64,000 nucleotides of DNA from Thermoanaerobaculia bacterium (GTDB taxonomy: Bacteria; Acidobacteriota; Thermoanaerobaculia; Thermoanaerobaculales; Sulfomarinibacteraceae), in NCBI GenBank assembly GCA_027067575.1, contig JAMOVQ010000179.1:8885-72884 (forward strand). Direction: 5' to 3'. Position numbers and translations under genes: made by a program. Within the stretch, counting starts at the first letter, position 1; each line of letters begins with the position of its first letter. The notes beneath the pieces were generated by a model, which worked only from the letters and a program-made list of their open reading frames with translations, was not told the origin of the DNA and ran no database searches. Below, piece by piece: positions 2,921-47,966 of the stretch.

Positions 2921-3430
2921 CTACGAATCCGCCTCCTCCACACCCTGCCGTTCCCGGATCGCCTCGTCGATCTCCCGTTCCACGTCCTCGACGTTCCGCC
3001 CCTCGACCTCGGCGACCTCGTAGACGAGAAGCTGCCGCGCATGGTCAAACATCTTCCGTTCCCTAAACGACAGCGATTTCCGGGATGCCACCCTCGTCAA
3101 GCAGAGGATGACGTCCACCACGGCCTCGAGGTCGCCGGTCTTCAGGCGGTCGAGATTCGCCTTGTACCGGTCCTTCCAGTCCCCGTCGCCGCTGGCCGCG
3201 CGGTCCCGCAACCGGTCCATCACCTTCCGGACATGTTCGCGGGCCGACAGGGGTCTCAGCCCGACCCGATCGCTGTTGGCGACGGGCACCATGACGCGGG
3301 AGTTCGTGCTCAGGAGTCTCAGGTTGTAGCAACGAACGGCCTCCCCGAGGAACTCCTGGGTCGTGATGCTCTCCACCACCGACACGCCCTGCGTCGGATA
3401 CACGACCATGTCACCGACCTCGAACTCCAC
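2921..3430 (-). CDS. carD: CarD/CdnL-family RNA-polymerase-binding transcription factor
   Basis: The sequence FEVGDMVVYPTQGVSVVESI...YYNLRL-type N-terminal domain plus a helical C-terminus is typical of CarD_CdnL_TRCF. GTG start at 3430 is preceded by GGAAAGGGGG. Confidence 0.8.
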   Translation of the reverse strand: MEFEVGDMVVYPTQGVSVVESITTQEFLGEAVRCYNLRLLSTNSRVMVPVANSDRVGLRPLSAREHVRKVMDRLRDRAASGDGDWKDRYKANLDRLKTGDLEAVVDVILCLTRVASRKSLSFRERKMFDHARQLLVYEVAEVEGRNVEDVEREIDEAIRERQGVEEADS

Positions 3431-3843
3431 GGGAGACCCCCTTTCCGATCGATTGTACCGAAGCACCCCGGCGATCGCCAGCGCCACGCCGCAGCCGCGC
3501 ACAACCGGCCTGACGGGGAGTGAACCGGCGGCCGGCCCGGGGCTTGCCCTCGCCTCCGTCGCCGGACCGCCCCCGCCCCCACGCCGGCCCGTTCCTCGTG
3601 GGGCGCTCGATCGCTGGATGGCGAAGGACTCCGTTGTGGGGACAGTCCCGATCGTGAAGGGCCTGGTTCACTGAGGCGCCAATCGGGACGTCGCTTCGCT
3701 CGTCCCTGGGGACCCGGAGAAGGCGAGGGTGAGTATTTCCGGCGCTCCTCGTGGAGCCGGAATCGATCCCGGCCGTTCCCGCACGCGCCCTCGGCGACGT
3801 CTGCGGCCTCACCTCCGGCCCTGTCGTCAACGTCGATGATTTC

Positions 3844-3852
3844 TGGTATGAT
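3844..3852 (+). promoter_or_regulatory. Putative extended -10 promoter (TGgTATGAT) about 230 nt upstream of the LRR gene
   Basis: TGGTATGAT at 3844-3852 lies in an unusually AT-richer patch. The -35 is weak (TCGTCA). The predicted TSS near 3859 would give a long leader to ATG 4081. Confidence 0.3.
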
Positions 3853-4080
3853 CCAGAGAACAAACGGTTGCAGCATGGCAACGAGAATGATCGGACGGTC
3901 CTTCGCTGACGGCCAGCGCATCGTGACGGCAACACGGCGCTGGTGTGGGGGACGTCCGCGAGAGAACCGGCCGGGCCGTCTCCCCCGGACCTCATTCGCG
4001 AGGTCCAATGACACCCGGACCGGGAGGCGGAACCGTCCCCGCAGGGGAAGCGGGCGGCGAACGGCACGAGGGAGGACGGC

Positions 4081-5829
4081 ATGGGCAGAAAAGAATGGGC
4101 GATCGTTGCACTGGCCGCCATGGCACTGCTCCCAGCGGTGGGAATCGAGGCGGCAATTCCGCAGTCCGAGCGCGATGCGCTGATGGCGCTCTACACCGCC
4201 ACGAACGGCGACTCATGGGGAAACAACGACGGCTGGGGTGGTGCAGCCGGTACCGAATGCACGTGGCACGGAGTCACGTGCGACGCCGGGGAGACCACCG
4301 TCATCGGGATCGACCTCTCGTCGACCCAACTGGACGGGGCGATCCCCCCAGAGATCGGCGACCTGACGAACCTCGAGATCCTCGATCTCTCCTTCGGTCA
4401 CCTCCCCGCGCCGATCCCGGTCGAGATCGGAGATCTCACACACCTCGTGGAGCTGCGTCTTAGCGGCGTCCAGGCATCGGAGGAGATCCCGCCCGTGATC
4501 GGCGACCTGCCCGTCCTGGAGGTCCTCGACCTGTCCTGGAACTACCTCACCGGCGCGATCCCGCCCGAGCTCGGCAACCTCTCGACTCTGCGGGAGCTGT
4601 ACTTGAACACCTGCCGGCTGACGGGTGAGATCCCGGCCCAGCTCGGGAACCTCGGAAACCTCGAGGTGCTCTTCCTCGGGTGGAACCGGGGACTGAGCGG
4701 CCCCATTCCGCCAGAGCTGGGCAATCTCGCCGCCCTGACCACGCTCGAATTGGGGGACAACCTGCTGACTGGCCCCATCCCGGTCGAGCTCGGGAACCTC
4801 TCGAACCTTGAGACGCTGAGCCTCTATCGGAACCACCTCCGGGGGACGATCCCCCGGCAGCTCAGCAACCTCACCAACTTGATCAGACTGGACCTTCTCG
4901 GCAACCGCCTGAGCGGACCGATCCCGCCCGAACTGGGAAACCTTCCGAACCTCGTGTCGCTCACCCTCTCCGAGAACGGGTTGAGCGGACCGATCCCGCC
5001 TGAGCTCGCCGGCCTCCCCAGCCTGGAGCGGCTCTCGCTTCTCAAGAACCGGCTCTCGGGTGAAATCCCGTCGGAGCTCGCCGGCCTCTCGACCCTCACC
5101 TACTTGTCGCTGGCATCCAACCTGCTGACTGGCCCCATTCCGGCAGAGCTCGGCGATCTGGAGAACCTCGAACACATCTACCTGGAAGGGAACCAGCTGA
5201 CGGGTGAGATCCCGGGAACCCTGGCGAACCTCAGTGCTCTGGCCGACGAAGCGTCCAACATCGGGTGGAACGGCCTTCACACGACAGACGAGGCCCTTGC
5301 CGAGTTTCTGGACCGGAAGAGCACCGGCTGGCGCTCGACCCAGACCGTGTGGCCGGAGAACATCACGGCCGGTAACGGCACCGTGTGCTCCGTAGAACTG
5401 ACCTGGGATGCGGTCGCCTACACAGCCGACGCCGGCGGATACCGGATCGAGACGGCCACCTCGGCCTCGGGCCCTTGGGAGGAGGCCGACGTCTTCGTGC
5501 CGTCCAAGACCACCACATCGGTGGCCGTGACCGGACTCGCCCCTGGGACGACGTACTGGTTCAGGGTCCGCAGCTACACCTTGCCCCACGACCACAACCC
5601 GGGCACGGTGCTCGGCGACCCCTCTCCCGCCGTCCAGGCCACCACGCTCCCGACCGGCGACCTGATCGACGGCGATGTGGACGGCGACACGAGCACCGAC
5701 GTGGGCGATCTCTCGGCGCTGCTCGGCTACCTGTACGGTCCCGAGCCGACGTACCGACCCGACGTGGACTGCGGCGGTGATGTCAACGCCGGGGATCTGT
5801 CGGATCTGGTCAGACTGCTCGGGCCCTGA
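4081..5829 (+). CDS. Secreted plant-type leucine-rich-repeat protein with FN3-like domain and C-terminal dockerin-like module
   Basis: SD GGGAGGA precedes the ATG, and the N-terminus looks like a signal peptide (AIVALAAMALLPAVGIEA). The cap ERDALMALYTATNGDSWGNNDGW...CTWHGVTCD resembles LRRNT_2. About 13 tandem 24-aa LxxLxxLxLxxNxLtGxIPxELG repeats follow. An FN3-like segment (ELTWDAVAYTADAGGYRIE...TTYWFRVRSY) comes next. Two Ca-binding dockerin-like repeats end the protein (DVDGDTSTDVGDLSALLGYL; DVDCGGDVNAGDLSDLVRLL). Confidence 0.85.
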   Translation: MGRKEWAIVALAAMALLPAVGIEAAIPQSERDALMALYTATNGDSWGNNDGWGGAAGTECTWHGVTCDAGETTVIGIDLSSTQLDGAIPPEIGDLTNLEILDLSFGHLPAPIPVEIGDLTHLVELRLSGVQASEEIPPVIGDLPVLEVLDLSWNYLTGAIPPELGNLSTLRELYLNTCRLTGEIPAQLGNLGNLEVLFLGWNRGLSGPIPPELGNLAALTTLELGDNLLTGPIPVELGNLSNLETLSLYRNHLRGTIPRQLSNLTNLIRLDLLGNRLSGPIPPELGNLPNLVSLTLSENGLSGPIPPELAGLPSLERLSLLKNRLSGEIPSELAGLSTLTYLSLASNLLTGPIPAELGDLENLEHIYLEGNQLTGEIPGTLANLSALADEASNIGWNGLHTTDEALAEFLDRKSTGWRSTQTVWPENITAGNGTVCSVELTWDAVAYTADAGGYRIETATSASGPWEEADVFVPSKTTTSVAVTGLAPGTTYWFRVRSYTLPHDHNPGTVLGDPSPAVQATTLPTGDLIDGDVDGDTSTDVGDLSALLGYLYGPEPTYRPDVDCGGDVNAGDLSDLVRLLGP

Positions 5830-41008: not shown

Positions 41009-42865
41009 TCACGACCCGTTCTTGATCGCGACTGCGAGGTCGGCCGCGTCCAGCACGCCGTCCGAGTTTCCATCGGATTCGGCCTCGGGGCAGGGGTTCG
41101 GATCGTCGCACCGGTCCGCGGCCGCCGTGCCGTCCGTGTCGAACAGCTCCCGGACGATCATGTCGAGATCGTCGCCATCGACCGTCCCATCCCCGGTCGC
41201 GTCGCCGGGGATCGGTCCCGAGACGACGGTCAGGGTAGCCGTCGGGCTGAACGCATCACACGGCTCCGGCGGAGCGGGGATGGCGTCATCGCAGCAGTTC
41301 ACCCGGACATGGATCCGAACCGTGCCGTCCCCGGCACCCGCGGTCACCGTCGCCGTGTACCGGCCGTCGCCGAGATCCTCGAACGGCACGTCCGGGTACG
41401 GAGTCCCGCGATCGAGGGATCCCGTGGCGCTCCCGGACGTCGTCTCGATCCAGCCACGAACGACCTGGCCCGGTACCGCGCCGGAACCGTCGGAGAGCGT
41501 GACCGTCACCGTGGCACTTCCGTTCGGCGACACGGTGGCGGGCGAGACGGTGACGGAGGAGTTCGGGGAAAGCCCGGTGTCCACCCTGGCGGCGGGGTAC
41601 AACCAGTAGGCGACACATCGGTCGTCCTCGCCGAGGGTATCGGCAAGGGCCCCCCCGTGGGAGAACCACCGCATCAGCGCATCCTCGGTCAGGGCGTTGC
41701 CGTTCTCGCCGTTGTCGTACGAATGCCCGAACCCAAGGGTGTGCCCGAGCTCGTGCTGGATCACCTCGGTCAGATCGTCCGCGTCGAGCCAGGCACAATC
41801 CTGGTTCCAGTTCTGGAACACCACGTCCCCCTCGACGGCCGACCACCAGGTGCCGCCCCGGTACGTGTGCTGGCCCGATGCACCATGGATCCCGCCAAAC
41901 GCCAGGACCCCACCGTTGGCACAACTGAACGCACCGTCGATCTCGTCGTACGGATCGTTGAACAGCACCTCCGAGACACCGTCGGTCCCGTTCGCCCACC
42001 CCACACCGTGGGGGGTGTGCCGCCCGGCGTTCGTCATCTCGATCGTCGCCACGGTCTCTCCCGACCACGCCGCCAGCGCCCGGCCGAACTCTGCGGGGCC
42101 GTTGGCGTTGAAGCCGACCTGGGGGTCGTTGCCGTAGTACCACGCTTCCGATCCACCGGTATCGAAAACGTGCCACCGTGCACTGTTCCCCATCAGCTTC
42201 CATTTCCGAGAAGGCTCATCCTCCGGGGTCTCCGGTCCCACGACACCCCCGGACGCCTCGATCTCCGCCCGTGTCAGCCTGTACCGAATATCGCTGGAGG
42301 AGCCCTCCTCCCGCGCCCGGATCCATTCCCGGAACGCGGCGAACTCCCGTGGCCCGTCGGCGAACGGTTCGAAACCCGGCCCCCGCAGGAACAGCCCCTC
42401 TCCGTGGGGGGAACGGCTGACGATCGCCCGCCCGTCCGCGAGCTCGAGCACCCGGAACGCCCCGGCCCAGAAGTCCAGGACCGACCACGCTCCGGAGCGC
42501 GTGCGAACGAGGAACAGGACGACATCCTCCCCACTCCGGAACGGTGGCACGCCGGGAACACGGTCCATCGCCTCCCGTGTGACGCCACCCGGTTCGACGA
42601 TCTCGATCTCCGAATCCGGGATCGAGCCCTTCCACGTCTCGTGGACCAGCAGTTCGACGTGGGTGAAGACGCGGCCGTTCTCGTGGAGCCTGGCCTCCAC
42701 GTCCCCGACCGTGGCGTGGACGATCGCATCCGCCGCAGCCACCATGTTCGCATCGTCTCGGACGACGATGGTCATCGCGGCGGCATCGGACACTGCCAGG
42801 AGCACGATGGCTCCGATCACCAATGCGATCGCTCGTGTTCCCTTGTTCCGGCCCGGACCGTTCAT
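41009..42865 (-). CDS. Secreted zinc metalloprotease (HExxHxxGxxH) with Ig-like domain and C-terminal dockerin-like module
   Basis: SD GGGAGGAAG precedes ATG 42865 and a signal anchor AIALVIGAIVLLAV follows. The metzincin-type motif is VIQHELGHTLGFGH. A Big-like segment follows (VTVSPATVSPNGSATVTVTLSDGSG). Dockerin-like repeats are DATGDGTVDGDDLDMIVRELF and DGNSDGVLDAADLAVAIKNG. Confidence 0.75.
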   Translation of the reverse strand: MNGPGRNKGTRAIALVIGAIVLLAVSDAAAMTIVVRDDANMVAAADAIVHATVGDVEARLHENGRVFTHVELLVHETWKGSIPDSEIEIVEPGGVTREAMDRVPGVPPFRSGEDVVLFLVRTRSGAWSVLDFWAGAFRVLELADGRAIVSRSPHGEGLFLRGPGFEPFADGPREFAAFREWIRAREEGSSSDIRYRLTRAEIEASGGVVGPETPEDEPSRKWKLMGNSARWHVFDTGGSEAWYYGNDPQVGFNANGPAEFGRALAAWSGETVATIEMTNAGRHTPHGVGWANGTDGVSEVLFNDPYDEIDGAFSCANGGVLAFGGIHGASGQHTYRGGTWWSAVEGDVVFQNWNQDCAWLDADDLTEVIQHELGHTLGFGHSYDNGENGNALTEDALMRWFSHGGALADTLGEDDRCVAYWLYPAARVDTGLSPNSSVTVSPATVSPNGSATVTVTLSDGSGAVPGQVVRGWIETTSGSATGSLDRGTPYPDVPFEDLGDGRYTATVTAGAGDGTVRIHVRVNCCDDAIPAPPEPCDAFSPTATLTVVSGPIPGDATGDGTVDGDDLDMIVRELFDTDGTAAADRCDDPNPCPEAESDGNSDGVLDAADLAVAIKNGS

Positions 42866-42969
42866 TGCACTTCCTCCCGTTCCCAACGTACGATGAAACG
42901 ATCCGGCGGGACACTCTCTTCCCGGATCGAGGGGGCATCGGTCGTGAGGACGGTCACGGAAACACCCAC

Positions 42970-43455
42970 ATGCGGTTGATACTCGGTCTCGGCGGCAACC
43001 TCGACGACCCCCCGGCGGCGTTCCAGGGGGCCTTGGATGCCCTCGGCCGGTTCGTCCGCGTCGTGACCGTGTCCTCGCTCTACCGGAGCGACCCTATCGG
43101 CCCCCCACAACCACGGTACTGGAACATGGCCGCACTGCTCGAGATCGCCGTACCGCCCGTCGAGCTTCTCGACCGGTGTCAGGAGCTCGAAGCGGCCGCG
43201 GGACGCGACCGGTCGCGGGAGGTCCTGTGGGGGCCACGGCCGCTGGACCTCGATCTGCTTCTGGCCGAGGGAATCATCGTTCTTGGGGCACGGCTGATCC
43301 TCCCCCATCCCCGGCTCCTCGAACGCCCGTTCGCCCTCGTCCCCGCCGCGGAGGCGGCACCGGACCTTCTCCACCCGCTGGCGGACCGGACCCTGGCCGA
43401 GCTCGCCGCGGGCCCGCACCCCGGACTGGTCCGGGTTGGCCCGTTGCACGGGTGA
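42970..43455 (+). CDS. folK: 2-amino-4-hydroxy-6-hydroxymethyldihydropteridine diphosphokinase
   Basis: MRLILGLGGNL...SSLYRSDPIGPP.QP.Y.N...WGPRPLDLDLL...LILPHPRL.ERPFAL.P is the HPPK signature. Confidence 0.85.
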   Translation: MRLILGLGGNLDDPPAAFQGALDALGRFVRVVTVSSLYRSDPIGPPQPRYWNMAALLEIAVPPVELLDRCQELEAAAGRDRSREVLWGPRPLDLDLLLAEGIIVLGARLILPHPRLLERPFALVPAAEAAPDLLHPLADRTLAELAAGPHPGLVRVGPLHG

Positions 43456-43583
43456 ACGTCGCCTGGGGCCGACAGGCGGACCGGATCAGGGTCCGGGGCG
43501 CTGGGGATACACCGATGATCCTGCGGATCGACGTCCGGGTCCGCCGTTCGGTCCGTTCCTTCCCCTCCCGGAGCGCGTACGCC

Positions 43584-44726
43584 TTATCGCAGGGCGGCGC
43601 GGACGGCGTCCACGGCCGCGTCGATCGCCTCGGCCGTCAGGAACGGGCCGATCCCGGCGCGCACCGTCCCCGAAGGGAAGGTGCCCAGGCGGCGGTGGGC
43701 CGCCGGCGCGCAGTGCAGCCCCGGCCGGAGCATGACGCCGTGGTCCCGGTCGAGCCGGCCGGCCAGTTCCCCGGAGTCTGCGCCCTCTACGGTGAAGGAC
43801 ACTGTGGCCACGCGCGGCTCATCCTCCGTCCAGCCGTGAAGCCGGACGCCGGGGATGCCACGGAGCCCGTCCACGAGCCGGCGGACGAGGCCGAGGGTCC
43901 TCTCGTGGATCGTTGGGACACCCTCCCCGGCGAGCCACCGCACGGCCTCCCCCAGTCCCGCGAACCCCGCTGCGTTGGGCGTTCCCGCCTCGAGCCGGTC
44001 CGGGAGCCAGTCCGGCATCGCCTCCGACTCGGAGCGGGAGCCCGTCCCGCCACGGACCAGCGGCTCCAAGGTCTCCGCCAGCGCCTCCGACAGCAGCAGG
44101 ATGCCCGTTCCCGGCGGCCCGAGCAACCCCTTGTGCCCCGAGGCGACGAACGCCGCCAGGCCCGAGCGGCCGAAGTGGAACGGGACGCTCCCGGCGGTCT
44201 GGGCGCCGTCCGCCACCACCGGAACCGGGGCCACCGCCCGGGCGACGGCCTCCACGGGCAGCACCGCCCCCGAGACGTTGGAGGCGTGGGCGAGCACCAC
44301 GAGGCGGGTCCGCGTCTCCCCCACGGCCGCCGCGATCTCCTCCGGCTTCGGCACCCCCCACCGGTGGGCGGCCTCCACGACCCGGACCCCGATCCCGGCC
44401 GTGCGCTCCAGGTGCCGCAGCGGCCGCATCACCGCATTGTGCTCCAGCGCCGACACCACGACTCTGTCGCCCGTCCCCAGGATGCCCGCCAACACCGTGT
44501 TGATCCAGAACGTCGCACCTGGGCCGAGGAGCGTGCGCTCCGGATCGGCTCCCAGCAGGCTGGCCACCGCGTCGCGGCACCCCTCGACGGCCCTCGAGGC
44601 GGCCACGGTCAGGCGGTGCCCACCCCGGCCGGGGTTGCCCGCGGACTCGTCGAGGAACCGCGCCACCGCCCGGGAGACGCCGGGGGCCTTGGGGAACGAG
44701 GTGGCGGCGTGGTCCAGGTAGATCAC
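43584..44726 (-). CDS. Class V aminotransferase (cysteine desulfurase / selenocysteine lyase family)
   Basis: VIYLDHAATSFPKAPGV..., HASNVSG, and the PLP-Lys context SGHKGLLGPPGTG are present, with the C-terminal RPGLHCAP loop. The GTG start overlaps the yedF stop (GTGA). Confidence 0.85.
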   Translation of the reverse strand: MIYLDHAATSFPKAPGVSRAVARFLDESAGNPGRGGHRLTVAASRAVEGCRDAVASLLGADPERTLLGPGATFWINTVLAGILGTGDRVVVSALEHNAVMRPLRHLERTAGIGVRVVEAAHRWGVPKPEEIAAAVGETRTRLVVLAHASNVSGAVLPVEAVARAVAPVPVVADGAQTAGSVPFHFGRSGLAAFVASGHKGLLGPPGTGILLLSEALAETLEPLVRGGTGSRSESEAMPDWLPDRLEAGTPNAAGFAGLGEAVRWLAGEGVPTIHERTLGLVRRLVDGLRGIPGVRLHGWTEDEPRVATVSFTVEGADSGELAGRLDRDHGVMLRPGLHCAPAAHRRLGTFPSGTVRAGIGPFLTAEAIDAAVDAVRAALR

Positions 44727-45361
44727 GGGCGGACGATCCGGCCCGCCTCCGACAGCCGGGAGGCGATCTCGAGCATGTCCGATCCGCGGCCCACGGCCAG
44801 CTTCGGGGCCAGGCCGAAGAAGTTGAGGCACGTCCCACAGGCGATGATCTCCACGCCCGTCTCCTCCAGCACCCGGAGGTCGTCGAGCAGCGGGGAGCCC
44901 TCGCAGCACAGGCGGACACCCGCGTTGTAGAAGATGATCGCGTCCGGTGTCAGGTGCGGTTCGAGCTGACGCTGGGTCTTGAGGAACGAGCGCAGGAGGA
45001 GCGCTCCCAGCTCGTCATCGCCCCGGCCCATCCGGTCCCCGGTCACCTGGACGACCAGCGGCCTCCCCGGCGCCCGCTCCAGCCCCCCCTCCCCCGGGAG
45101 GGTGCACTCGAGCCCCTGGTCGCCCTCCGGCGGCGGTGCGACCGAGGCGTCCGAGGCCCGGACCGTCACCACCCAGCCGCCGCCCTCGAGAGGCTCGGCC
45201 TCCACATCGGCCTGGCGGGACGCGGCGAACCGCGTCACATTGGAGCGAGCCAGGTCGTCGGCGACCAGGACGCGGATCTCACGCTCCCCGGCCTCGAGCT
45301 GCTTGCGGACCTCCAGAACCGGTCCCGGACACGGCAGGTGTCGGACGTCGATCTCCCTCAC
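44723..45361 (-). CDS. yedF: YedF-type sulfurtransferase-like selenium metabolism protein (TusA-like plus DsrE-like domains)
   Basis: GTG 45361 is preceded by GGAGGGAGAT. VREIDVRHLPCPGPVLEVRKQL is the TusA CPxP motif. The C-terminal half (LVVQVTGDRMGRGDDELGALLLRSFLKT...IIFYNAGV...ACGTCLNFF) is DsrE/F-like. The remaining N-terminal 421 codons of the 633-aa track ORF are antisense to the next gene and are rejected. Confidence 0.8.
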   Translation of the reverse strand: MREIDVRHLPCPGPVLEVRKQLEAGEREIRVLVADDLARSNVTRFAASRQADVEAEPLEGGGWVVTVRASDASVAPPPEGDQGLECTLPGEGGLERAPGRPLVVQVTGDRMGRGDDELGALLLRSFLKTQRQLEPHLTPDAIIFYNAGVRLCCEGSPLLDDLRVLEETGVEIIACGTCLNFFGLAPKLAVGRGSDMLEIASRLSEAGRIVRP

Positions 45362-45485
45362 ATCTCCCTCCGGCGGGCATTCTATCCGAGCGGGTGCCGG
45401 TGGTGACGCCGGAGATCCGGGCTCCGTAGGAGGTGGGTGTAGAATGCTCGTCGCCGCCGGAAGCGGCGGCAGCAGGGAGGGTTCG

Positions 45486-46760
45486 ATGCGGAGAAGTTCG
45501 ATGCTCGTTCCGGTGATGGTTCTCGGCCTCGCGACCGGCGTCGCCGCCGCAGGCCAGCAGCAAGCCGCTCCCACCGCGACGAAGGCGCCGAGGCAGATGA
45601 TCCGGGTGGAGAAGGCCCACTTGGAGCTCGGCACATTCATCGCGGGCAGCGAGGTGGTCGGCACCTTCGTCTTCCACAACGACGGCGACCGGCCCGTCAA
45701 GATCGTCCGCGCCAAACCCACGTGAGGATGCACGGTGGCCGGGTACGACCCGGTGATCCCGGCAGGTGGGTCGGGAAAGCTCACGGCGAAGGTCAAGACC
45801 CATGCATCCCAGAGCGGGCATCTGACGAAGGTCGTTACGGTGACGACGGACGATCCTGTGGCCAAGACGATCCAGCTCAAGATGAGCTTCGACGTCAAGC
45901 CGGCGATCGAGGTCAAGCCGGAGGCCAGACCGCAGCTCGAGGCCATCGAGGGAGGCACGGCGTCGAAGACGCTGGTGCTGCACCGTGTCGATGGCAAGCC
46001 GCTCGAGGTGACGCGCATCGACACCGGCAGCCCGAAGCTGCTCACGGTCACGTCCCGTCCGGCAACGAAGAAGGACCGGAAGCTCGGCGCGGTGGAGGGC
46101 GACGTCGTCCTCGAGATCCGGAGCAAGGAGCTCTCGGGGTTCACCCAGCGCACCCAGATCCTGACCCTCCACACGAACCACCCCAAGCTCGAGACGATGC
46201 GGCTCCCCGTCAGGATCCGCGTGAAGCCCGTGATCGCCGCCATGCCGGCGCAGGTCCGGCTGTGGGCCCCGGCGGGCGAGGAAGCGCGTGACCTGGTCTC
46301 CGTTGTCACGGTCCTGAGTAACACGGGGAAGCCGTTCACCATCACCGCGGTGGAGAGCTCGCACCCGGACGTGGTCACCGCTGAAGTGAAGGGCAAGGGT
46401 TCTGCGACGCGGCACACCATCGCGTTGCACGTGCCGGCGAAGGTCGTCTCGGGCATCGGCCTCGGAACCAAGCGGGCAACGCTGACGATCCGGACCGATA
46501 ACGCCAGGAAACCGGTGCTGGAGGTTCCCGTCCTCATCGCCCGCCGGAGGAAGCCGAAACGGTTCCCCGGCGCCGTTCCGATCCACGGGGCCCGGTCGCT
46601 GCCGGGCACGCCCAAGGACCTCATCCTCGAGCCGAAGGGACGGGAACACCTCCGGCTCGTGCCCGAGGCGCAGGTCGGGAAGCCGGCCAGTCAGCAGCCC
46701 GCTCCGACGGCCGCGCCGTCCGGGAAGGTTCCGGCGAGCGGCGGGGAACAGGGCGAATAA
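45486..46760 (+). CDS. Exported DUF1573-repeat protein with in-frame TGA (45723-45725) read as selenocysteine: candidate selenoprotein with U-G-C motif
   Basis: ATG 45486 has SD AGGGAGGG and a signal peptide MRRSSMLVPVMVLGLATGVAAAG. Track ORFs ending at 45725 and starting at 45735 are in the same frame. The junction reads FVFHNDGDRPVKIVRAKPT-TGA-GCTVAGYDPVIPAGGSGKLTAKV, which is the DUF1573 xCGCT pattern with TGA in place of the first Cys. Two further Ig-like DUF1573-type domains follow. Confidence 0.7.
45734..45758 (+). promoter_or_regulatory. Candidate bacterial SECIS-like hairpin downstream of the in-frame UGA
   Basis: The core stem CCGGGU/ACCCGG (45739-45744 / 45748-45753) has an ACG apical loop. 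It is extendable with G:U pairs and a mismatch to 45734-45758. It starts 11-16 nt after the UGA. It was not scored with any SECIS model. Confidence 0.4.
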
Positions 46761-46802
46761 CGTACAGCCACGCGGCGGAGAACAACGGGCCATGGAGAGC
46801 GC

Positions 46803-47966
46803 ATGAGCGGTGAGATGGGTGGCAGCATGGCGCGGGAGGCCGGACAATCGGCCTCCCGGCCCCTCGAGGCAATCACGCCCGTCGAGATCTTCGATCACCT
46901 CAAGAAGGGGGTGCTCGGACAGGACGGGGCGCTGCGGTACGTCTCCGTGGCGGTGTACAAGCACGTCACGGGGAAGGTCCCCGGCAACATCCTCCTGATC
47001 GGCAGCTCCGGTACGGGCAAGACGACGATCATGAACAACATCCAGCGCCTGTACCAGGAGGTGCCGGAGTACCTGCCGTTCCGGGCGATGACGATCATCA
47101 ACGCCAACCTGCTCGTGGACGCCGACCGTCTGGAGTTCCGGCCGGACCGGCTCATGGCCGCCGTGGAGCAGCGGGCCCGGGCGCTCCTCGGCGGCCGCGC
47201 CACGGCCGAGGAGCTGCGGCAGGCCATGGAGCGGGCCACCATCTGCATCGACGAGGTGGACAAGATGTCCTCCGTCGTGGCGGGCAAGCCGAACCCGCTC
47301 GGTGTGGTGCTCCAGCAGGGGCTCCTGACCCTGATGGAGGGCGAGCACGTGGCCTACCGCACCCACGCCGTCACCGACGACGGCGAGGAGAAGCCCGTCA
47401 CCCTCGACCTCGACACCGGCCACATGATGTTCATCTGCGGCGGTGCCTTCGAGGAGTTGTACGACCAGGTCTACCTCCGGGTCACCAAGCCCGGCAGCGG
47501 TGAGCGGCTCAAGAGCCATGCCATCCAGACCGCCGACGGCCAGGTCCGCATCGAGGAGCGGTTCTCCCTGGCCGACTTCCTCAAGATCGAGGACCTGTTC
47601 GAGTACGGCATGGTCCCCCAGTTCATCGCGCGGTTCGACAACATCGTCCTGCTCAACGACCTGACCGTCGACGTCCTCAAGGCGATCCTGCTGAAGTCGT
47701 ACGACTCCCCGTTCATCCGCTCGCGCCGGTACTTCGACGTGATGGGGATCGACCTCGAGATCGAGGACCTCGCCGCCGCCCTGATCGCCGAGGCCGCGGA
47801 GAAGCACTCCCGGACCGGCGCCCGGGCGCTCCGGACGATCTTCGGCAAGATCGTCAACCGGCTCGAGTTCGACCCCGAGGGCAGCAACCGCCTCGAAGAA
47901 GGTGAGGACGGCCGCAAGCGCCTCCGCATCACCGCCGACATGGTCCGCCGGGTCACCGCCGCCTGA
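46803..47966 (+). CDS. ClpX-like AAA+ ATPase lacking N-terminal zinc finger, GYVG pore loop and IGF loop
   Basis: ITPVEIFDHLKKGVLGQDGALRYVSVAVYKH, Walker A GSSGTGKT, Walker B ICIDEVDKM, LQQGLLTLMEG, MFICGGAF, MVPQFIARF and sensor-2 TGARALRTI are all colinear with ClpX. The GYVGEDVE and IGFG positions are replaced. Confidence 0.8.
   Translation: MSGEMGGSMAREAGQSASRPLEAITPVEIFDHLKKGVLGQDGALRYVSVAVYKHVTGKVPGNILLIGSSGTGKTTIMNNIQRLYQEVPEYLPFRAMTIINANLLVDADRLEFRPDRLMAAVEQRARALLGGRATAEELRQAMERATICIDEVDKMSSVVAGKPNPLGVVLQQGLLTLMEGEHVAYRTHAVTDDGEEKPVTLDLDTGHMMFICGGAFEELYDQVYLRVTKPGSGERLKSHAIQTADGQVRIEERFSLADFLKIEDLFEYGMVPQFIARFDNIVLLNDLTVDVLKAILLKSYDSPFIRSRRYFDVMGIDLEIEDLAAALIAEAAEKHSRTGARALRTIFGKIVNRLEFDPEGSNRLEEGEDGRKRLRITADMVRRVTAA

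Follow-up and report, generated by a model that had tools for sequence, protein, structure and literature searches.

Four protein families, namely YedF (TIGR03527, which bears a CPXP and a CGXC motif), a selenocysteine (Sec) lyase, DUF3343 and SelD, have been described as clustered and co-occurring (Lin et al. 2015, PMC5322559), and that study credits the first association to Zhang et al. 2008. Here, we analyzed a yedF gene and the gene of a putative selenocysteine lyase that lie together in DNA of a Thermoanaerobaculia bacterium (GenBank assembly GCA_027067575.1, contig JAMOVQ010000179.1, positions 8,885 to 72,884 of the forward strand). We refer to this whole stretch of 64,000 nucleotides (nt) as the window. 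In the cluster that Lin et al. (PMC5322559) give for Slackia heliotrinireducens (Shel_25430-25460, with SelD as Shel_25360), the same four families are neighbors, and there as here the host is Sec-decoding. In contrast to that cluster, only yedF and the lyase gene stand together in our genome, while DUF3343 is fused to SelD and encoded on another contig; a locus with all members is found in 13 of 17 relatives that carry the pair. The host also differs, being an uncultured Thermoanaerobaculia-type acidobacterium, and the word 'Acidobacteria' is absent from the main text of Lin et al. The association of YedF, Sec lyase, DUF3343 and SelD was thus already published between 2008 and 2015, and the pair in the window is an ordinary new member of it that has been cut off from selD.

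Sulfur relays of the IscS-TusA and SufS-SufE type offer a biochemical parallel. In these, a desulfurase dependent on pyridoxal phosphate (PLP) builds up a persulfide at a cysteine in a loop and then hands it over to a small acceptor protein, whose own cysteine takes it up; TusA uses a CPxP motif for this. IscS and SufS chains were among the structure matches of the enzyme in the window. Unlike in these relays, however, the element would here probably be selenium and the acceptor has an added DsrE-like domain with a CGTC motif. Closer to SelD are NifS-like proteins acting as its selenium donors (Lacourciere et al. 2000, cited in Mariotti et al. 2015, PMC4561486), and SelD has been described as fused to NADH-dehydrogenase-like and to NifS-like domains (Mariotti et al. 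2015, PMC4561486). As in these cases, a class V lyase would hand selenium to SelD, with fusion or adjacency as support. Unlike in the NifS-SelD fusions, a YedF step would lie between, and SelD carries DUF3343 in place of NifS as its fused domain. Finally, SclA (EF2568) of Enterococcus faecalis cleaves L-selenocysteine in vitro, with cysteine as a competitive inhibitor (preprint, 10.1101/2020.02.07.939272). Like SclA, our enzyme is group II NifS-like, with an RXGXHCA loop, a PLP lysine, a short N-terminus and a genomic link to selD. It differs in carrying Asn97 for His100 of SclA and in scoring 262.9 bits on the SclA model (NF040779) against a cut-off of 525. Moreover, its host decodes Sec, while the role of SclA is in the 'orphan selD' molybdenum-hydroxylase trait.

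By its profile score, the first protein of the pair is a member of TIGR03527 (NCBIfam, sulfurtransferase-like selenium metabolism protein YedF), reaching 170.1 bits against a curated equivalog cut-off of 110 in a match that spans profile positions 1-194 of 194; a profile search of the whole genome agreed with this. It begins with VREIDVRHLPCPGPV and has the two-domain build of the family, a TusA/SirA-like N-terminal and a DsrE-like C-terminal domain. Pfam TusA matches residues 2-68 with 46 bits, above the cut-off of 28.6. The Pfam DsrE match to residues 153-210 is weak (19 bits, cut-off 22.7), and the C-terminal domain hence rests on the full-length TIGR03527 match. The TusA-like domain carries the CPXP motif as C11-P-G-P and the DsrE-like domain the CGXC motif as C175-G-T-C178. 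All three cysteines (C11, C175 and C178) are present without exception in the 108 homologs that were aligned.

The second protein, of 380 residues, matches Pfam Aminotran_5 with 236.9 bits. Its best NCBIfam family is TIGR01977 (am_tr_V_EF2568) with 341.9 bits, just below the curated cut-off of 377; this family leads the next one by 79 bits and SufS by 140 bits (SufS model, 202.3 bits, cut-off 475). The enzyme aligns end to end with solved SufS and CsdA structures and begins about 30 residues later. Its active-site residues are H96-N97, the PLP-binding K199 in SGHK, and the loop R334-P-G-L-H-C339-A, which corresponds to RXGXHCA. Among yedF-linked homologs, H96, K199 and the loop are kept in 55 of 55, and so is Asn97, in several phyla, at a position where SufS has the second histidine of 'EHH'. 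The preprint on SclA aligns its His100 with Asp146 of human selenocysteine lyase (10.1101/2020.02.07.939272), and we equate Asn97 with this position from the preprint's description. An H100N mutant of SclA still cleaved selenocysteine and was still inhibited by cysteine, any change being less than 2-fold (10.1101/2020.02.07.939272). Because this mutant stayed active, Asn97 is compatible with Sec lyase activity, yet it says nothing decisive on selectivity. We regard the enzyme as a putative selenocysteine lyase, with selenocysteine, not cysteine, as its presumed substrate.

Both genes form one operon on the minus strand (Table 1). The yedF stop codon TGA (44725-44723) overlaps the GTG start of the lyase gene (44726-44724), and this start is consistent with homologs and with profile position 1. 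In this DNA of 70% GC, calling by GC content at third codon positions mis-called antisense frames; gene positions were taken from hidden Markov model (HMM) and tblastn matches, and the annotation of the relatives' flanks is approximate. The initial annotation had described a YedF-type protein with a TusA-like CPxP and a DsrE-like domain, translationally coupled through a GTGA overlap to a class V aminotransferase of the cysteine desulfurase/selenocysteine lyase type, and a divergent neighbor gene for a UGA-containing DUF1573 protein. The TIGR03527 score, the motifs and the quoted N-terminus bear out the first of these, the Aminotran_5 and TIGR01977 profiles the second. The overlap was found as described, and so was the divergent arrangement, with start codons at 45361 and 45486 and 124 nt between them.

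In the relatives, the pair belongs to a larger unit. The same-family set comprised 24 genomes. Full-length yedF above cut-off was present in 21 of the 24, with the lyase gene immediately downstream in 17 of these 21 and 0-24 nt between the two tblastn matches. In 13 of the 17, a gene for a DUF3343::SelD fusion comes next on the same strand. Its product is 67-75% identical to SelD of the source genome, which is encoded on contig C111, and alignments cover residues 2-3 to 417-434 of 435 (to at least 426 in 12 of 13). Lyase gene and selD are contiguous in 11 relatives, and in two there is one unrelated gene between. Four relatives (G004, G007, G009 and G022) share with the source genome a yedF-lyase pair without downstream selD. 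From this it follows that the conserved unit is yedF-lyase-selD and that the window holds the same unit minus selD, with folK converging on the lyase gene instead. A tblastn search of the window found no selD remnant (best E-value 0.08). Genes outside the core vary, with baeRF family 10 in six loci, RDD or FHA-RDD in five, and others. The baeRF proteins, bacterial eRF1-like and of about 375 residues (99-113 bits), are encoded divergently, about 80-250 nt upstream of yedF, in six relatives (loci L074, L075, L078, L081, L082 and L084).

The DUF3343::SelD fusion is conserved in the 13 same-family relatives (L072-L084), and a Desulfobacterales-titled locus (L133) aligns over residues 3-426. The fusion may be unreported. 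The SelD fusions that the consulted passages of Mariotti et al. 2015 and Lin et al. 2015 name do not include it, and the main text of the latter (PMC5322559) lacks the word 'fused' and has 'fusion' solely as a STRING method term; supplements to these studies may already list the fusion or an acidobacterial YedF. A second, more distant type of yedF (37-42% identity) occurs in four relatives and is followed directly by selD with an in-frame TGA in three (G011, G014 and G017). Such a TGA-containing selD would encode a SelD that is itself a selenoprotein. YedF of this type (30-42% identity to that of the window) followed by selD was also seen in the phylum sample described below (L091-L094), with an in-frame TGA in selD of G103, G058 and G220. 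At one such locus, L085, the yedF-selD genes are preceded by genes for a 2-hydroxyglutaryl-CoA dehydratase D-component and a BcrAD/BadFG activase, neighbors that are also listed for Slackia (Lin et al. 2015, PMC5322559).

The link of yedF with selD reaches beyond the family. Our phylum sample consisted of 201 genomes, 163 of them with selD above cut-off, and matches to the YedF model were counted at an E-value of at most 1e-20. Such matches were present in 31 genomes, as full-length proteins in 12 and as stand-alone DsrE-like halves in the rest. Profiled in this way against selD, as the initial annotation had proposed, YedF was confined to selD-positive genomes (31 of 31, against 0 of the 38 selD-negative ones; one-sided Fisher p = 8e-4 for all 31, uncorrected for kinship). 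Three genomes of the sample flagged as unpublished (G064, G089 and G191) have selD but no YedF match and serve as the basis of no claim. The profile carries no information within the order, where all of the 41 genomes have selD. Among 80 yedF loci of named genomes, which include Desulfobacterota, Clostridia, Cloacimonadota and Coriobacteriia, a lyase gene lay within 5 kb, in either order, in 38, selD in 26, both in 16 and at least one of them in 48. Leaving aside the Acidobacteriota-titled loci, 69 remain, of which 27 have the lyase gene and 20 have selD.

The stand-alone DsrE-like halves, of about 110-130 residues with a CGTC motif and without a TusA domain, occur in the sister family and in other Acidobacteriota (L034-L041 and L100-L117). 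Selenocysteine in these proteins was considered and rejected, as on translation the flagged TGA codons precede the start or are the stop codon.

The source genome has the machinery to use selenium for Sec. In the assembly (191 contigs, 100% complete), the genome profile search gave selD with 363 bits, selA with 496 bits and selB with 317 bits, all above cut-offs, and there is one tRNA-Sec; SelU (TIGR03167) was not found in the complete assembly. The sole selD lies on contig C111, at 3008-4315 (+) of the fetched locus L090, as a frame of 435 residues with a Cys-type active site, GGCGAK. Its first 71 residues match Pfam Se_S_carrier (DUF3343) with 56.8 bits, and the SelD body follows. The genome also encodes other enzymes of SufS-like (466 bits over the part that matched) and NifS-like (507 bits) type, and the yedF-linked enzyme hence is an additional paralog. 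The Sec machinery of the genome, the linkage to selD in relatives and the restriction of YedF to selD-positive genomes in the sample together argue for a selenium role of the pair. We therefore consider it likely that yedF and the lyase gene form a general selenium-mobilization operon that supplies SelD and thereby the whole Sec pathway, being a copy of the family's yedF-lyase-DUF3343::selD operon whose selD now lies elsewhere.

On the precedents of NifS-like enzymes, SclA and TusA, such an operon might work as follows. The PLP enzyme would convert free L-selenocysteine to alanine and selenium, the latter kept as a perselenide on Cys339. Cys11 in the TusA-like domain of YedF would accept the selenium, and the CGTC dithiol might aid its release or passing on as selenide. 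The DUF3343 domain fused to SelD would then receive the selenide, and SelD would make selenophosphate for SelA and tRNA-Sec. The selenophosphate would feed all cellular Sec insertion, that of the DUF1573 protein included but not alone.

Several points weigh against a general selenium operon. The case is built from sequence and genome context. In the source genome the operon is physically apart from selD, and YedE (TIGR04112) was not found in the complete assembly. Co-occurrence of YedF with selD discriminates weakly, because selD is present in 163 of the 201 genomes, and for the 12 genomes with full-length YedF alone the one-sided Fisher p is 0.07 (again uncorrected for kinship). The enzyme stays below the curated cut-offs of both TIGR01977 and the SclA model, with the 262.9 bits given above on the latter, and its selectivity cannot be read from SclA because it has Asn97 for His100. 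Furthermore, a few YedF-bearing organisms are without SelD (Lin et al. 2015, PMC5322559).

These SelD-lacking organisms and the sub-threshold scores on both selenium-specific lyase models would also fit a pair that handles sulfur, in which a cysteine desulfurase would charge a TusA/DsrE-like persulfide acceptor that serves tRNA thiolation or thio-cofactors, and annotation would have given the pair its selenium label in error. The enzyme is a member of the cysteine desulfurase superfamily, SufS and CsdA are the nearest solved structures, and TusA and DsrE are sulfur-relay folds. However, in 13 relatives the pair and selD make up one transcription unit, in several other phyla the pair adjoins selD, none of the 38 selD-negative genomes of the phylum sample has a YedF match, and the genome already holds SufS-like and NifS-like enzymes. 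In addition, for SclA, the characterized member of the family, selenocysteine is the preferred substrate and cysteine an inhibitor (10.1101/2020.02.07.939272). We hence regard a sulfur role as unlikely. The detachment of the operon from selD could also point to a pair that serves mainly selenium detoxification or recycling and is not a committed SelD donor; it would degrade mis-made or released Sec, with the CGTC motif reducing reactive selenium. A redox or detoxification role of YedF has been proposed from its CGXC motif (Lin et al. 2015, PMC5322559). In the ancestral arrangement, however, the pair immediately precedes selD, whose product has a carrier domain fused to it; this fits delivery better. 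As a main function we thus judge detoxification very unlikely, although the two roles are compatible.

The general operon also has to be weighed against a narrower one. The initial annotation had proposed a selenium (or sulfur) mobilization and delivery module dedicated to, or co-regulated with, the divergent DUF1573 gene; the 124-nt control region would then match selenium supply to the synthesis of this protein. The two transcription units are indeed back to back, and the neighbor very probably encodes a selenoprotein. Its gene has an in-frame TGA at codon 80 (45723-45725) within the motif T-U-G-C-T, and 'DUF1573 domain-containing protein, UGC' is listed as a known selenoprotein family in a review table (PMC9312934). 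All 40 relatives have a tblastn match to the protein, and a single in-frame TGA is present in 21 of the 22 best DUF1573 matches from the 22 same-family relatives listed with loci. The nearest model is that of the OS_HP2 (seleno)protein (NF041425), on which the protein scores 79.9 bits, below the cut-off of 100. A GC-rich hairpin of 7 bp, GGCCGGGU-ACG-ACCCGGU, starts 15 nt past the UGA (45737-45754, plus strand), a distance like that of a selenocysteine insertion sequence (SECIS). The claim that it is a SECIS was dropped, as the fold energy of the 68-nt region was no better than that of shuffled sequences (z -0.33). A scan of 43000-47500 against Rfam, at E-values up to 1, gave no relevant RNA family.

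The intergenic region could at first sight speak for such co-regulation as well. The two putative -10 regions, TAGAATGCCCGCCG and TAGAATGCTCGTCG, are near-identical, and their outward-facing TAGAAT boxes lie in a 14-nt inverted repeat (45371-45384 and 45440-45453, 86% complementary, 55 nt apart). Boxes of this type are found at orthologs elsewhere, though. A TAnmnT box stands at -22 to -27 in 14 of 18 yedF upstream regions of the family (500 shuffles: mean 1.8, maximum 7), and TAGAAT or TACAAT boxes precede 12 of 29 DUF1573 loci that are not beside yedF, at -40 to -82 from the guessed ATG. In genes of this family, the element reads TA(G/C/T)AAT, often with C/G-rich sequence after and G/T-G-T before it, about 20-27 nt before yedF and 40-82 nt before the DUF1573 gene. 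It probably represents the housekeeping promoter of the lineage. The boxes came from the comparison of upstream regions; a consensus promoter and terminator scan of 43300-45800 found nothing. Because orthologs elsewhere have the same -10 box, each of the divergent genes seems to carry its own usual promoter, and in the sequence between yedF and the DUF1573 gene we see no specific shared operator.

The adjacency itself was not seen elsewhere. In tblastn searches, DUF1573 was beside yedF at 0 of 29 yedF loci of relatives (flanks of up to 1.5 kb, one with 270 nt upstream), yedF or the lyase gene was beside DUF1573 at 0 of 29 fetched DUF1573 loci of relatives, and none of another 89 yedF loci, of which named genomes gave 80 and the phylum sample 9, had DUF1573. 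Among the searched loci, the source genome thus is the only one with DUF1573 next to yedF, and the arrangement of aminotransferase, yedF and DUF1573 genes, whose conservation the initial annotation had proposed as a check, is not conserved in them. In contrast, a ClpX-like ATPase gene lies directly downstream of the DUF1573-Sec ortholog in five close relatives (76-82% identity) without yedF. Because the ATPase linkage is kept in these relatives, DUF1573 and ATPase form a separate conserved unit, and the ATPase may be a functional partner of the exported selenoprotein; on ClpX models it reaches 135.7 bits, far under the cut-off of 359. In general, all Sec insertion draws on one shared selenophosphate pool, which also argues against a supply reserved for one protein. 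Dedication of the pair to its neighbor is hence not supported by the compared loci, and we hold a dedicated or co-regulated module to be highly improbable. What stands of the initial proposal is the selenium role, as the pair is followed by selD in relatives; the dedication fell with the missing synteny, which the initial annotation had itself named as a ground for refutation, and with the seemingly separate promoters. The position beside the DUF1573 gene most likely is a by-product of rearrangement.

Table 1. Features of the yedF-lyase locus and its surroundings (window positions).
Feature	Position	Strand	Details	Basis
folK (HPPK)	42865-43455	plus	convergent with lyase gene; sits where relatives have selD	Pfam HPPK, 107.6 bits
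Class V PLP enzyme, group II NifS-like/EF2568-SclA type	43584-44726	minus	380 residues	profile matches
GTGA overlap	44723-44726	minus	yedF stop/lyase start (translational coupling)	sequence read (plus strand TCAC)
yedF	44723-45361	minus	212 residues, GTG start	sequence read and TIGR03527 profile match
Shine-Dalgarno GGAGG	45367-45371	minus	5 nt upstream of yedF GTG	sequence read
Putative -10 box TAGAAT, yedF-lyase operon	45379-45384	minus	at -23 from start codon	upstream-region comparison
Putative -10 box TAGAAT, DUF1573 gene	45440-45445	plus		upstream comparison
DUF1573/OS_HP2-type exported protein gene	45486-46760	plus	424 codons; context, outside the module	Pfam DUF1573, 56.6 bits
ClpX-like AAA ATPase gene	46803-47966	plus	downstream of DUF1573 gene; context	Pfam AAA_2/AAA_5

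The general selenium-mobilization operon can be sharpened into a committed relay. In this version, the SclA-type lyase would pass selenium to YedF as the middle carrier and YedF to the DUF3343 domain of SelD, here in trans. After the rearrangement, the first two genes would have come under a divergent promoter pair shared with the exported selenoprotein gene. We may speculate about such a relay, which we consider possible but rather doubtful as a whole.

How bacteria choose selenium over an excess of sulfur and deliver it safely to SelD is so far only partly understood. The locus itself adds no new principle, and having a selenoprotein gene next to it should not lead to its annotation as a supply system dedicated to that gene. 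The invariant Asn at the proposed selenium/sulfur selectivity position, however, is a concrete residue for testing. YedF and DUF3343 are biochemically uncharacterized, and the family's yedF-lyase-DUF3343::selD operon is a compact, testable candidate for a relay. If the relay holds true, the DUF3343::SelD fusion would be Rosetta-stone evidence for DUF3343 as a docking and acceptor module of SelD.

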